Positions 206-3,707 of a stretch of 3,747 nucleotides of DNA are shown in pieces. The DNA is from Escherichia coli (GTDB lineage: Bacteria > Pseudomonadota > Gammaproteobacteria > Enterobacterales > Enterobacteriaceae), in assembly GCF_003334255.1 (NCBI RefSeq), contig NZ_QOWU01000116.1; one strand, 5' to 3'. Position numbers and translations under genes: made by a program. Below the pieces are notes generated by a model that made no database searches, was not told the origin of the DNA, and worked only from the letters and a program-made list of their open reading frames with translations. How positions within the stretch are numbered: the first letter of the stretch is position 1; the number at the start of each line of letters is the position of its first letter.

Positions 206-493
206 TCAGAGAATGCGTTTGACCGCCTCGCTATATACTTCCGAGCGTTCTCTTTTCCCAACAGAAATCACGAAAACGACAACTTTCTCGTCTATAACCT
301 GGTATACAAGGCGATAGCCTGAAGACCGGAGCTTAATCTTGTAACAATCAGGCATACCACGGAGCTTGTTTGCTTCAATCCGGGGTGACTCAAGTACTTC
401 AACCAGCTTCTTTTTCAACTGTTCACGTACCGTCGAGCCCAGCTTTCGCCATTCCTTTAGTGCCCGCTCGTCAAAATCCAGAAAATACGCCAT
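206..493 (-). CDS. relE: RelE type II toxin (ribosome-dependent mRNA endonuclease)
   Basis: 95-aa ORF MAYFLDFDERALKEWRKLGSTVREQLKKKL...VISVGKRERSEVYSEAVKRIL, recognised from memory as E. coli RelE. Its ATG (493-491) overlaps the relB stop codon by 1 nt (TGATG on the minus strand), the canonical coupled arrangement. Confidence 0.96.
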   Translation of the reverse strand: MAYFLDFDERALKEWRKLGSTVREQLKKKLVEVLESPRIEANKLRGMPDCYKIKLRSSGYRLVYQVIDEKVVVFVISVGKRERSEVYSEAVKRIL

Positions 494-732
494 CAGAGTT
501 CATCCAGCGTCACACGTACTGGCTTAGGATTACGAAGCCGTTCTTTCACTATCTCCACAAGTTCAGCATCTTCATCACTCAGGAGTGTCTGTTTGAACGG
601 CAAGCGTTCATTGTCAGCGATATACTCGAGCATGAGACGAAGCGCTTCAGAAGGAGTTACACCCATTTTTTCAAGCGCGGCGTAAGAACGCGCTTTAAGT
701 TCATCGTCAATACGCAGGTTAATGCTACCCAT
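493..732 (-). CDS. relB: RelB type II antitoxin (ribbon-helix-helix autorepressor)
   Basis: 79-aa ORF MGSINLRIDDELKARSYAALEKMGVTPSEALRLMLEYIADNERLPFKQTLLSDEDAELVEIVKERLRNPKPVRVTLDEL, recognised as RelB. GAGGTG Shine-Dalgarno sits 6 nt upstream of the ATG (complement of 739-744). The gene lies immediately upstream of relE in the same orientation. Confidence 0.96.
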   Translation of the reverse strand: MGSINLRIDDELKARSYAALEKMGVTPSEALRLMLEYIADNERLPFKQTLLSDEDAELVEIVKERLRNPKPVRVTLDEL

Positions 733-742
733 GTCTTACACC

Positions 743-796
743 TCTTGTAATTACAAATGTCATTACAAGTATCGCACTACAACATGCTTAGGGCAA
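743..796 (-). promoter_or_regulatory. relBE promoter with relO operator
   Basis: Minus strand reads TTGCCC (791-796) - 17 nt - GATACT (768-773), followed by CTTGTAATGACATTTGTAATTACAAG, which holds two TTGTAAT repeats and a perfect 12-bp palindrome TTGTAATTACAA (745-756). This matches the known RelB/RelB-RelE autoregulatory operator architecture. Exact -35/-10 assignment is by eye. Confidence 0.7.
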
Positions 797-1062
797 GTCA
801 CGAAGGAAGTCAGAAAGTAGTCGTAAGAACGGTGATCACTGTCCGCTTTGTGCCAGGAGCAGCCATTGCTAAGTCCATCCTGTATTGTGCAGGTCAGCTC
901 GTTTTTAAAGAGTCCGGCCATCATCTTACTGGTACAGACACCATATACTTTGTGACGGTCAGGCTACATATGCACAACTCAACTTATTCATCTATTTTTT
1001 GCTTTAGCATGTCAGTGTTGCTTTCTCGTCGGCGGGTGAGCGGTGACCTGACCTGTCGATAA
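757..1062 (+). CDS. ydfV: Hypothetical 101-aa ORF divergent from relB; position and length correspond to the annotated E. coli prophage ORF ydfV; coding status doubtful
   Basis: It is the only ORF of 60 aa or more in the relB-flxA gap that does not overlap a confident gene. Its ATG lies inside the relO operator, it has no Shine-Dalgarno, and the product is S/T/V/R-rich with no motif I recognise. The symbol is assigned from synteny (hokD-relE-relB-ydfV-flxA) and length as I recall them, not from sequence identity. Confidence 0.3.
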   Translation: MSLQVSHYNMLRASHEGSQKVVVRTVITVRFVPGAAIAKSILYCAGQLVFKESGHHLTGTDTIYFVTVRLHMHNSTYSSIFCFSMSVLLSRRRVSGDLTCR

Positions 1063-1214
1063 AGGAACGTAACACGTTTTATGCAACACCCGCATGCGGC
1101 AGAAAATTATTGCCGAACGTTTACCCCTGTCAACAAGCTTTACTTTCTGAGGCGCGCCAGCCCGCGAGGAAAACAATCTGAACATCAAACAATTAATGAC
1201 ACAAGAAATACGAT

Positions 1215-1241
1215 TAAAGATTTTTTTGTGCATGCCGATAG
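1215..1241 (+). promoter_or_regulatory. Sigma-28 (FliA) class 3 flagellar promoter driving flxA
   Basis: TAAAGATT (1215-1222) - 11 nt - GCCGATAG (1234-1241) against the consensus TAAAGTTT-N11-GCCGATAA, a 7/8 match in each element. It sits 24 nt upstream of the flxA start codon. Confidence 0.8.
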
Positions 1242-1264
1242 TGCTTTTTTAAAAGGAGAAATCT

Positions 1265-1597
1265 ATGTCTGTCACAATTCAGGGAAATACCTCAACCGTT
1301 ATTTCAAACAACTCCGCCCCGGAAGGAACATCAGAAATAGCCAAAATCACAAGACAAATTCAGGTGCTGACTGAAAAGCTTGGGAAAATCTCATCGGAAG
1401 AGGGGATGACGACACAGCAGAAAAAAGAAATGGCTGCATTGGTACAGAAGCAAATTGAAAGCCTCTGGGCTCAACTGGAGCAGTTGTTAAGGCAGCAGGC
1501 AGAGAAAAAGAATGAAGACGCGACAGTTCAGCCTGATAAAAAAGAAGAGAAAAAAGACGATACAAATACCGCTGGCACCATTGATATTTACGTCTAA
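1265..1597 (+). CDS. flxA: FlxA, FliA-regulated protein (small hydrophilic, coiled-coil-like, K/E/Q-rich)
   Basis: 110-aa ORF with AAGGAG (1253-1258) 6 nt upstream of the ATG, a sigma-28 promoter directly upstream and an intrinsic terminator directly downstream. The product MSVTIQGNTSTVISNNSAPEGTSEIAKITRQIQVLTEKL... is recognised as FlxA of the E. coli Qin prophage. Confidence 0.9.
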   Translation: MSVTIQGNTSTVISNNSAPEGTSEIAKITRQIQVLTEKLGKISSEEGMTTQQKKEMAALVQKQIESLWAQLEQLLRQQAEKKNEDATVQPDKKEEKKDDTNTAGTIDIYV

Positions 1598-2033: not shown

Positions 2034-3347
2034 TCAATCTTTTTTATCGGGATCAGGCTTCTTTTTAGGTAACTTCGGGGGCTTAACTTGCTGATGACTT
2101 TGCGTTCGGCGCGTAAGCCAGGGATGGTCAGCTTTAGGTTTAACATAGTATTTTGAGCGTAAATCAATACGGGCATTATCCACTCGTTCATGGACACTCT
2201 TTTCATCATCCAGTGGTATAGGCTCCGGGCCATCAACATACTTTTCCCAGCCCAGCGCTTTCCCGTCATACAGAACGTTAATTTCACCGTCAAAGTTCTC
2301 GCATACAGTAACAACCGAATGCCTAAGTCGATATCCCCGGCCCTCACTGCGTACCTGAAACGCACTGCTTTTGTACTGGAAAGTGAGATTTTTAGACAGA
2401 ACGCGCTTCGCCTGTAGGCTGAAGATATAACCCAGTTCCTCTTCAGAATGGTGCACATCAAGATGAGCATTATCAGTAGTACGAGGCGACGTAGCGAACC
2501 GGTTGTTATAGGCTTCAATAAAGGTCGGCAACCATGCATTTGCTGTTTCAATATCACTGATATTCTGAAGCCGCATTTCTTTGACCAGCCTGTCCTGTAG
2601 TGTCTGATTGGCGCGCTCTACCCGCCCTTTTGCCTGCGGGCTGTTGGCATGGATTGGCTCGATGCCCAGTGTCTTTATCGCACGAGTGAACTGGGTCAGC
2701 TCACCTTCCCGCTCTGGGTTATTTACCCTGAATATACTGTGTCTATCAGAGTAGAGAGCGAGCGATACGCCATGATCATTAAGGTAACCCCGGAGGGTTT
2801 CCATGTAAGCCCGGGTTGTTTCAGCAGGCACAAAACGCAACGCCATCAACGCACTGGTGGCATCATCAATGAAAACGATCAGTGTACATCTGGGGCCTCG
2901 ATTTTCAAACCAGTCATGAGGTGAGCCATCAATCTGGATCAGTTCACCGTAAGATGGTCGTCGCATGCGGCGTTGATATATACGGGCAATTTTACGACGG
3001 CGTTCACGCCATAACCCCTCTTCTATCATCCACTTTCTGAGAGTTTCAACGGATAAAGATAAACCGTGTATCTCGCGCAATTTTTCGCACGCAAACGTAG
3101 GTCCAAAATCAGCGTAACGGCCTTTGAGGAGTGAAATTACTGTTGCTCTGAATTCAGTAGAAAAGGAATTATTAGGACGCTTTCCACGTCGGTGGGAAAC
3201 CAGACCAGAAGGCCCTTCATTTCTATACCGTTGCACCAGACGTTTAACCTGCCGAATAGAAATGCCAATGCGTGCCGCAGCTTGTTCCTGAATAATCTGA
3301 AGTCGGTGGAGTTCCTTATGACTCATCGTAACAGTCTCTTTGATCAT
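2034..3347 (-). CDS. DDE transposase with N-terminal helix-turn-helix and integrase-core (rve-like) catalytic domain; IS481/ISNCY(IS1202-group)-like
   Basis: 437-aa ORF. The N-terminus (ELHRLQIIQEQAAARIGISIRQVKRLVQRYR) looks like a helix-turn-helix. Candidate catalytic triad in typical rve context and spacing: D in LIQIDGSPHDW, D in LALYSDRHSIF, E in AKGRVERANQTLQD. The C-terminus is basic and proline-rich (KPPKLPKKKPDPDKKD). GGGGGA Shine-Dalgarno sits 6 nt upstream of the ATG. Family placement is by motif recall, not alignment. Confidence 0.9.
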   Translation of the reverse strand: MIKETVTMSHKELHRLQIIQEQAAARIGISIRQVKRLVQRYRNEGPSGLVSHRRGKRPNNSFSTEFRATVISLLKGRYADFGPTFACEKLREIHGLSLSVETLRKWMIEEGLWRERRRKIARIYQRRMRRPSYGELIQIDGSPHDWFENRGPRCTLIVFIDDATSALMALRFVPAETTRAYMETLRGYLNDHGVSLALYSDRHSIFRVNNPEREGELTQFTRAIKTLGIEPIHANSPQAKGRVERANQTLQDRLVKEMRLQNISDIETANAWLPTFIEAYNNRFATSPRTTDNAHLDVHHSEEELGYIFSLQAKRVLSKNLTFQYKSSAFQVRSEGRGYRLRHSVVTVCENFDGEINVLYDGKALGWEKYVDGPEPIPLDDEKSVHERVDNARIDLRSKYYVKPKADHPWLTRRTQSHQQVKPPKLPKKKPDPDKKD

Positions 3348-3375: not shown

Positions 3376-3524
3376 ACATTTTAGAATGGTTCAAAGGGGA
3401 CATTACAGCTTGGTGTTAACAATAGCCTGCTTCTCCGTGCCTTTCGGCACGTAAGAGGCTAACCTACATGTGTCTAGCATGAAATTGGCCTCAGATTAAT
3501 GTTAAGCGTCTTGCAGGACGCGTA

Positions 3525-3707
3525 ATGTTAACTGGGGCTTTTCTCTATCTGCCGTTGGTGTCCATGCCCGAGGCAGATAGCCTCAAGCACCCGCAGTCAT
3601 TCTACTTAACTAAGATTTCCCCGCAAACCGTTTTTGTCCAGCACAGTAAATATCCAACTAAACCAATGGAGTTCGCTGTATTTACCGCCAGTATTCAATG
3701 CACATGA
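3525..3707 (+). CDS. Hypothetical 60-aa protein, unknown function
   Basis: ORF with AGGA (3515-3518) 6 nt upstream of the ATG. Its TGA stop (3705-3707) overlaps the ATG (3704-3706) of a following in-frame-shifted ORF, the ATGA arrangement typical of translationally coupled genes. I do not recognise the product. Confidence 0.3.
   Translation: MLTGAFLYLPLVSMPEADSLKHPQSFYLTKISPQTVFVQHSKYPTKPMEFAVFTASIQCT

Follow-up and report, generated by a model that had tools for sequence, protein, structure and literature searches.

The control of relBE has been described at the level of individual operator hexads. RelB recognizes four hexads of the form [A/T]TGT[A/C]A, which make up two abutting 12-bp half-sites (Overgaard et al. 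2009, PMC2812701). The operator, relO, extends over the -10 box and the start site of relBE transcription, and the RelB footprint extends from -10 to about +17/+20 of the transcript (PMC2812701). The overlap of the divergent reading frame ydfV with the relBE promoter, including the 24-bp spacing between relB and ydfV, has already been published.

Divergent transcription of the pair has been reported as well. In the ExcludonFinder study (PMC12288877), relBE-ydfV was presented as an 'excludon', and strand-specific RNA-seq revealed an increase of the plus-strand ydfV transcript together with a decrease of relBE. Reciprocal changes were observed under erythromycin, ciprofloxacin, chloramphenicol, and ceftazidime, and ydfV was treated as a functional gene of the TA system. 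Prophages are further known to carry moron or cargo cassettes in hotspots, such as the Z/fun hotspot of P2 (Rousset et al. 2022, PMC9122126).

Here, the ydfV region of an E. coli prophage is compared with these systems. We conclude that ydfV is most probably not a protein-coding gene and represents a chance open frame that spans the point where two cassettes, each mobile on its own, meet in Qin-type prophages. The anatomy of the region, its mosaic distribution, and the absence of coding constraint are direct observations; that no YdfV protein is made seems likely on these grounds.

Gene content of the prophage segment

The analysed stretch of 3747 bases, referred to as the window, is a segment of an E. 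coli lambdoid prophage of the Qin type with the order hokD-relE-relB-ydfV-flxA. Only the 5′ part of hokD is present; it lies on the minus strand and precedes relE (206..493, 95 aa) and relB (493..732, 79 aa), which are minus-strand genes recognized from ORF and annotation. On the plus strand follow the ORF of ydfV (757..1062, 101 codons), which RefSeq labels 'protein YdfV' and which we judge to be a chance ORF, and flxA (1265..1597, 110 aa), identified from ORF, annotation, and PHROG 11044 at 1.8e-71. A putative class-3 (sigma-28-like) promoter of flxA, TAAAG-N15-GCCGATAG, was located by eye on the plus strand at 1213..1242, using the FliA consensus. The remainder of the window contains a minus-strand ISNCY-family transposase ORF (2034-3347) and a sok-like antisense RNA on the same strand (3421-3592). 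The latter (Rfam, 104 bits) was the sole convincing match when the window was scanned against Rfam at E up to 1, and no match fell inside 733-1264.

The interval 733-1264 is 100% identical to K-12 MG1655, so the literature on K-12 is valid for this locus. Used as a query of 532 bases, it was matched in 1282 of 5426 complete E. coli genomes, and in 1158 of them the match covers 80% or more of the query. Nearly all of these copies are at least 99% identical.

The start of ydfV within the relBE operator

The four-hexad, two-half-site architecture of relO is present at 745..768 as TTGTAA (745-750, plus), TTACAA (751-756, minus), ATGTCA (757-762, plus), and TTACAA (763-768, minus). These inverted repeats form a perfect palindrome (745-756) and a pseudo-palindrome (757-768). 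They agree with the published hexad definition (PMC2812701) without any difference, and 745-768 is relO itself. A relaxed consensus scan placed the relBE promoter at 768..796 on the minus strand, with a TG-extended -10 element GATACT (773..768), a spacer of 17 nt, and a -35 element TTGCCC (796..791). The -10 element abuts the hexad at 763-768, in line with the overlap described for relO (PMC2812701). Both promoter elements fall within ydfV codons 4-14, and together the hexad and promoter coordinates place the whole relBE promoter/operator inside codons 1-14.

The initial annotation had noted that the ATG at 757 lies within relO, and this was borne out exactly: the start codon is the first three bases, and thus the first half, of the RelB hexad ATGTCA (757-762). 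The distance of 11 nt given there between the relBE -10 element and A757 is likewise correct, as is the lack of a Shine–Dalgarno sequence, since the 16 nt 5′ of the ATG (cctcttgtaattacaa) contain a single G. Its description of the product as low-complexity does not hold. YdfV uses 19 residue types with an entropy of 3.99 bits, although its composition is skewed, being rich in S, V, and H with four acidic residues.

A steric clash between relBE and ydfV expression had also been proposed. The geometry is sound, and it is relevant only if plus-strand initiation occurs upstream of 757. No sigma-70-like plus-strand promoter with a -10 element in 700-756 was found at relaxed thresholds by a consensus scan that may miss weak or alternative-sigma promoters. 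The nearest weak plus-strand candidates have predicted starts inside the ORF, at ~895 and ~1005. On the opposite strand, a strong promoter-like site, TTGACA-16-AATAAT, is located at 1106..1133 and directed antisense across the ydfV ORF to relBE; its spacing is changed in one compared locus (L064).

A joint of two mobile cassettes

The ydfV frame is put together from pieces of different history. In total, 838 plasmid records from Klebsiella, Enterobacter, Citrobacter, Salmonella, Pantoea, and other genera match relB and its upstream DNA. In nearly all of the plasmid matches listed, homology ends at query positions 361-383, which correspond to 853-875 of the window, that is, at about 860, and only 18 of the 838 run on into the flxA side. 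Past this end, the plasmids carry unrelated neighbours such as a CDF transporter, a LysR-type regulator, betT, and malT, and the ORFs that open there from the ATG of ydfV are 46-64 aa long and differ in their tails from ydfV. These match ends define 733..860 as the promoter-side end of a mobile hok-relE-relB cassette that includes ydfV codons 1-35.

The flxA side moves separately. Approximately 20 loci that carry flxA and the 400 nt 5′ of it without relBE were compared, and their homology to the window starts at 832-869. The settings include P2-like prophages, where the cassette lies between genes for tail-fibre assembly and tail sheath, as well as a site beside an integrative-element GTPase gene and one after an IS21-family element. 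In a diverged flxA locus (89% DNA identity), which directly follows umuC, 866-1101 is wholly missing. Occurrence with flxA where relBE is absent assigns 865..1264, with ydfV codons 37-101, to the flxA cassette leader; its first ~350 nt (865-1213) accompany flxA with no role assigned to them. Based on these separate distributions, the relBE cassette contributes codons 1-35 of ydfV, and the flxA cassette codons about 29-101. No other DNA relatives were found in phages or plasmids.

The stretch 797-840 is a spacer that always accompanies relBE. The homologies of the two sides overlap in a 24-bp element at 841-864, recognized from alignments and folding as a degenerate hairpin copy. This element is a natural candidate for the short homology or site by which the two cassettes were joined.

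Tests of the ydfV frame for coding

The length of the frame might be taken as a sign of a gene, and it is not beyond chance: when the window was shuffled, ORFs of at least 101 aa appeared in 51% of cases (mean 0.73). Six ORFs of this size are present in the real window, and three of them are non-genic, namely one antisense to relB, one antisense to flxA, and one out of frame in the transposase. The ORF is called consistently by gene callers and PGAP, and this consistency reflects its length and is silent on function.

Homology searches were performed in two very large protein collections. A word-indexed search of 5.8 billion proteins gave 31 matches, all from Enterobacterales and all near-identical Escherichia/Shigella copies or fragments, with full-length matches at 84-99% identity. 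Exhaustive scanning of 1.84 billion cluster representatives with HMMER gave 21 matches, comprising 15 Enterobacterales fragments and six giant repeat proteins (P0032 and others). The latter were considered as homologues and rejected. Their scores are sums of 6-17 weak, mutually homologous repeats of ~20-32 bits each, and the aligned stretch, YdfV residues 13-69, crosses the joint of the independently distributed cassettes. Neither search found a YdfV homologue beyond near-identical copies and fragments. Pfam (precomputed), NCBIfam, and PHROGs assign no family to YdfV, the only match being one to a PHROG with an E value of 0.28.

Polymorphism was assessed from a catalogue of variant sites over about 70 related loci, from which pN/pS was calculated. 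The genes relB (36 synonymous and 4 non-synonymous sites, pN/pS 0.03), relE (40 and 9, 0.07), and flxA (17 and 22, 0.35) yielded values below that of ydfV, and relBE contains no indels in the catalogue. The ydfV frame has 10 synonymous and 24 non-synonymous variant sites and three indels. Its pN/pS of 0.76 is indistinguishable from that of the other five frames of the same DNA (0.81-1.23) and gives no sign of purifying selection, although the sample is small, with 34 substitutions, and would accommodate weak constraint on a very young gene. The part derived from flxA is available solely in copies of 99% identity or more and therefore accounts for only five of these substitutions. The N-terminal part alone has a pN/pS of 0.51.

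Conservation of the frame in distant relatives had been named as a mark of a real gene. In diverged DNA, however, the frame is broken. In a relBE module at 92% identity, a 1-nt insertion shifts it after codon 20, and a stop ends it after 18 codons in a Pantoea module at 88% identity. The ATG of ydfV opens ORFs of 46-74 aa with unrelated tails in five further relBE contexts. Natural disruptions are also common, including IS5 and IS2-like insertions and a deletion that fuses the ORF to dicC, and 585 contigs carry a Shigella variant whose C-terminus has been replaced.

Codon usage is not gene-like either. With a manually entered codon table, ydfV scored -0.20 bits per codon in log-likelihood, a value equalled by 33% of its own shuffles and similar to the scores of those ORFs of the window that are not genes; relB, relE, and flxA exceeded at least 99.9% of their shuffles with the same table. 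A single-sequence AlphaFold2 model of YdfV is all-beta with a mean pLDDT of 52 and no residue above 70, which is weak evidence when taken alone.

The hairpin family at the joint

The element at the joint belongs to a hairpin family of the form GTCCGCT-NN-GTGCCA-RR-AGCGGAC, with a fixed stem and a fixed loop. Plasmid relBE modules carry the intact hairpin GTCCGCT-TTGTGCCAGG-AGCGGAC (-13 to -15 kcal/mol, z -2.2 to -4.5). In the copy at 841-864, the right arm is of the flxA type, AGCAGCC; five of seven stem pairs are retained, and the predicted energy of -6.4 kcal/mol (z +0.73) is no better than that of shuffles.

The pattern GTCYGCT-NN-GTGCCA-RR-AGCRGMC was found in at least 120 viral contigs, and the stricter hairpin pattern in at least 120 stretches of species-representative genomes, where about 0.14 are expected by chance. 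Over the loci compared there are 240 distinct flank combinations, and in 73 of them a further hairpin, which shares the stem and differs in the loop, is located 12-27 nt upstream. Of 95 other contexts, 80% have the hairpin outside any ORF of at least 100 aa, compared with 25% for random positions in the same loci, so that an ORF reading straight through it, as in ydfV, is the exception. It is also a dispersed repeat in Erwiniaceae and Hyphomicrobiaceae, with up to four copies per 6-8 kb in Hyphomicrobium. In hotspots of P2-like prophages, cargo such as a NERD-domain gene is flanked on both sides by these hairpins, and one is located upstream of a RES NAD+ phosphorylase gene.

Several known element types were considered for this family. 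After the stem, the usual continuation is RTTG or RTTA, and TTTTT occurs in one locus only (L005); since a U-tract is missing as a rule, the hairpin is not a canonical terminator, and the copy at 841-864 has no stable stem in any case. On inspection, neither the Tn3/gamma-delta res half-site (TGTCYR) nor the shufflon sfx core (GTGCCAA), the sigma-54 element (TGGCAC), or the integron attC R′ site (GTTRRRY) fits. At stem position 4, the combinations C:G, C:A, T:G, and rarely T:A look independent in the core counts, and therefore offer no covariation argument for an RNA structure. A column-information profile revealed no conserved tetranucleotide 5′ of the stem, such as the GTAG type expected of REP/BIME elements. 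Rfam searches of six loci with good hairpins (E up to 0.1) had no match at the hairpin positions, and a sequence-string search of the literature did not find the hairpin. The family is apparently undescribed. We tentatively suggest that it may mark points of cargo exchange (relBE-hok, flxA, defence genes) among P2-like and lambdoid prophages and plasmids, perhaps acting, beyond shared micro-homology, as a specific recombination or mobility site or as a protein- or RNA-recognized element that drives cassette shuffling across phyla.

Origin of the ydfV frame

The initial annotation had offered, as one of two possibilities, that ydfV is an annotation artefact in a regulatory region. At the protein level, this possibility is supported by the lack of homologues, the lack of purifying selection, the broken frame, the missing ribosome-binding site, and the position of the ORF over a recombination joint. 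The other possibility, a gene whose expression is inversely tied to the toxin–antitoxin state, has already been published as an idea of inverse expression, at the transcript level only. What is new here is that the ydfV frame is a by-product of a cassette junction without a coding signature.

The frame can be divided accordingly into segments of different origin. Codons 1-14 are the relBE promoter and relO read from the opposite strand, and the ATG would be conserved because it is part of a RelB-binding hexad. Codons 15-35 correspond to the spacer that accompanies relBE, and codons 29-36 to the small palindromic boundary element at which the cassettes may have recombined. The remaining codons are the probably non-coding leader of the flxA cassette. 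On this model, the DNA controls relBE (741-796) and forms a cassette boundary. Insertions and mutations attributed to 'ydfV' would act through altered relBE transcription, and any plus-strand RNA over the stretch would stay untranslated.

Published expression data and alternative explanations

ydfV is listed as differentially expressed in other studies as well. In a microaerobic/aerobic study, its transcript increased by log2 4.79, and the protein column holds an X, whose legend covers undetected products (PMC8910356). Literature searches with YdfV peptide strings returned nothing relevant. According to the summary given in the ExcludonFinder paper (PMC12288877), a Tn10 insertion in or near ydfV suppresses RNase E lethality, and this effect is reversed by overexpression of relB and not by overexpression of ydfV. 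The suppression presumably results from lowered RelB expression. In general, the reported 'ydfV' phenotypes are best read as effects on the relBE promoter.

A rather doubtful alternative assigns the locus a non-coding divergent transcript. Plus-strand initiation in or beside relO would collide or compete with relBE initiation, the overlapping 5′ ends would lead to mutual exclusion, and the ORF would be incidental. The overlapping transcription and the opposite changes under four antibiotics (PMC12288877) speak for such an arrangement, and its geometry is real, with relBE from -35 to about +20 falling within 741-796. Moreover, the boundary hairpin of the Qin arrangement is degenerate, so that a plus-strand RNA would not meet an intact stem. 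However, the published unit ends were set by coverage thresholds rather than by mapped 5′ ends (PMC12288877), and the scan described above detected no sigma-70-like promoter for the plus strand in 700-756. Translation inhibitors usually induce relBE transcription, beside which the reported repression of relBE is odd. As regards the protein, a divergent transcript is compatible with ydfV being a chance frame.

Two further explanations would require a protein, past or present. That ydfV is a very young, chimeric gene, born de novo when relBE and flxA were joined, translated without a Shine–Dalgarno sequence, and switched on only once RelB2E leaves relO, is very unlikely. Its RNA is detectable, and about 1158 of 5426 complete E. 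coli genomes carry an intact copy with at least 99% identity, but the 99% identity is equal in the flanking non-coding DNA and thus reflects recent spread rather than constraint. The N-terminal pN/pS is below 1, yet that part also forms the promoter and operator and is constrained as such. All of the evidence for a chance ORF speaks against this explanation, and frequent IS disruptions and truncations are tolerated. Furthermore, the protein was not detected in one proteome (PMC8910356), and the failure of ydfV overexpression to reverse the Tn10 phenotype, in the form in which it is summarized, points the same way. A decayed remnant of an older gene between relB and flxA is likewise very unlikely. 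It would account for the 350 nt (865-1213) that move with flxA, and the weak similarity of residues 13-69 to the repeat units of giant proteins might be read as a trace of ancestry. That similarity spans the joint of independently distributed cassettes and therefore cannot be inherited, quite apart from its composite score, and the DNA has no other relatives in phages or plasmids. On the minus strand, the 73-aa ORF at 1012-1233 carries two deletions in the diverged flxA locus, which gives no support to a former gene there either.

Significance for annotation

The significance of a chance origin for ydfV lies mainly in annotation and interpretation. More than 1000 complete E. coli genomes carry ydfV under a protein name, and transcriptomic, Tn-seq, and evolution experiments treat it as a gene. 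If the frame is the relBE promoter and a cassette leader on the other strand, what has been recorded as mutation or altered expression of 'ydfV' should be reinterpreted in terms of the relBE promoter or of read-through. The locus also provides a clean and dated case in which the joining of two mobile cassettes yields a 100-codon ORF from nothing, and may serve as a negative control in studies of de novo genes. The hairpin family at the joint is an unexplained by-product of the analysis and deserves a separate study.

Comparison with known systems

ydfV is most probably an ordinary annotation legacy. Like other 'y' ORFs of K-12 cryptic prophages that were annotated by length alone, it has no homologues, function, or detected product and overlaps regulatory DNA, and its name has likewise been spread by similarity to K-12. 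It differs from them in that its origin can be demonstrated directly, as the frame lies across a datable cassette joint. With the published excludon (PMC12288877), it shares divergent units with overlapping 5′ regions and, as reported, reciprocal expression. There, ydfV is a functional gene, whereas here a protein finds no support and no plus-strand promoter was found.

The flxA cassette is comparable to the cargo of P2 hotspots. In some strains, flxA and its leader occupy such a hotspot, and other cargo, including the RES NAD+ phosphorylase and the NERD protein, is bounded by the same hairpin, which is not mentioned in the literature found on P2-like hotspots. Here, in contrast, the cassette resides in a lambdoid (Qin) prophage and adjoins relBE.

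The hairpin family itself resembles REP/BIME palindromes. It is multi-copy, short, palindromic, predominantly intergenic, and sometimes tandem, and IS insertions and recombination joints likewise fall at its copies. Its sequence is not known to be related to the REP consensus of E. coli. Unlike REP/BIME palindromes, the hairpins have a loop, GTGCCA, that is conserved from Alpha- to Gammaproteobacteria, their tandem copies are direct rather than alternating, and in E. coli they are confined to mobile elements.

Hairpin family and its flanking sequences

The hairpin GTCCGCT-NN-GTGCCA-RR-AGCGGAC belongs to a widespread family in which both the stem and the loop are fixed, and among the collected loci it was found in 240 distinct contexts, for the most part intergenic. 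The copy in the window lies at 841-864, and another occupies 3109-3132 of L001, one of the related loci collected from other genomes, phages, and plasmids. Several copies can be present at a single locus, such as those at 2245, 3168, and 4067 in L084, those at 4046, 4965, and 7347 in L192, and the four per locus in L233 and L234. Hairpins flank cargo cassettes in plasmids and in P2-like and lambdoid prophages, and dispersed copies were found in Hyphomicrobium, Pantoea, Mixta, and Erwinia. Often, a second hairpin with an identical stem is located about 20 nt upstream of the family hairpin; its loop is TTCGCTCA in enterics and ACCCCCGA in Alphaproteobacteria. Scanning of six loci with good hairpins against Rfam matched no family at the hairpin positions, and a literature search for the hairpin sequence found no paper containing it.

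In several contigs of the Erwiniaceae genera Mixta and Pantoea (L222, L224, L225, L257-L259, and L269), the DNA immediately 5' of the hairpin also holds a recurring G+C-rich stretch about 60 nt long, CCGGTTAGCGCAGTGGGGCTGACGACCCGGCAACGCCGGGGAGCCGGAGG...GCCATCAGG.

Insertions and cargo at the hairpin

Independent IS insertions fall within a few bases of one another just 3' of the hairpin, after ATTGCTAA(G), at about 2412 in L011 and at about 1373 in L012, the site corresponding to 873-875 of the window, which suggests that the palindrome is adjoined by an insertion hotspot. One inserted end, TGGATTTGCCCC..., is presumably IS2-like, and another, GGAAGGTGCGAATAAG..., we take to be IS5.

Among P2-like prophages, the cargo between the tail-fibre-assembly and tail-sheath genes varies (4001-7231 in L191, 4001-7563 in L192, and 4001-5128 in L193) and includes a RES-family NAD+ phosphorylase, a NERD-domain protein, and hypothetical proteins. 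The cargo stretch starts in each case with the same conserved 45-nt flank and the family hairpin. In L008, the cargo at this site is flxA with the leader that carries the ydfV C-terminal codons.

Polymorphism of flxA and an antisense promoter-like site

The flxA gene (1265-1597) is under relaxed constraint (pN/pS 0.35). Its W68R polymorphism is common (37 loci), E84K was found in 24 loci, and the nonsense allele W68* in 2; two indels were also present. A near-consensus sigma-70 promoter-like site, TTGACA-16-AATAAT (1106-1133, minus strand, 11/12 consensus matches), is directed leftward, antisense through the ydfV ORF and toward the relBE promoter. Since an insertion in L064, a diverged flxA locus, alters its spacing, this site is not conserved as a promoter.

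Transposase ORF and sok-like RNA

A single, uninterrupted ISNCY-type transposase ORF of 437 aa occupies 2034-3347 on the minus strand, with HTH and rve_3 domains according to the gene table of L011. RefSeq splits this DNA into "protein YdfW" and a transposase pseudogene "missing C-terminus". "Protein YdfW" corresponds to the last 49 codons of the ORF, sharing its frame and stop, and seems to be another legacy name from K-12, the second in the window, placed on a piece of a larger ORF. Just beyond the transposase ORF, a strong match to the sok antitoxin RNA (Rfam RF01794, 104 bits, E 9e-24) at 3421-3592 on the minus strand is the second hok/sok-type locus of the window, alongside hokD.
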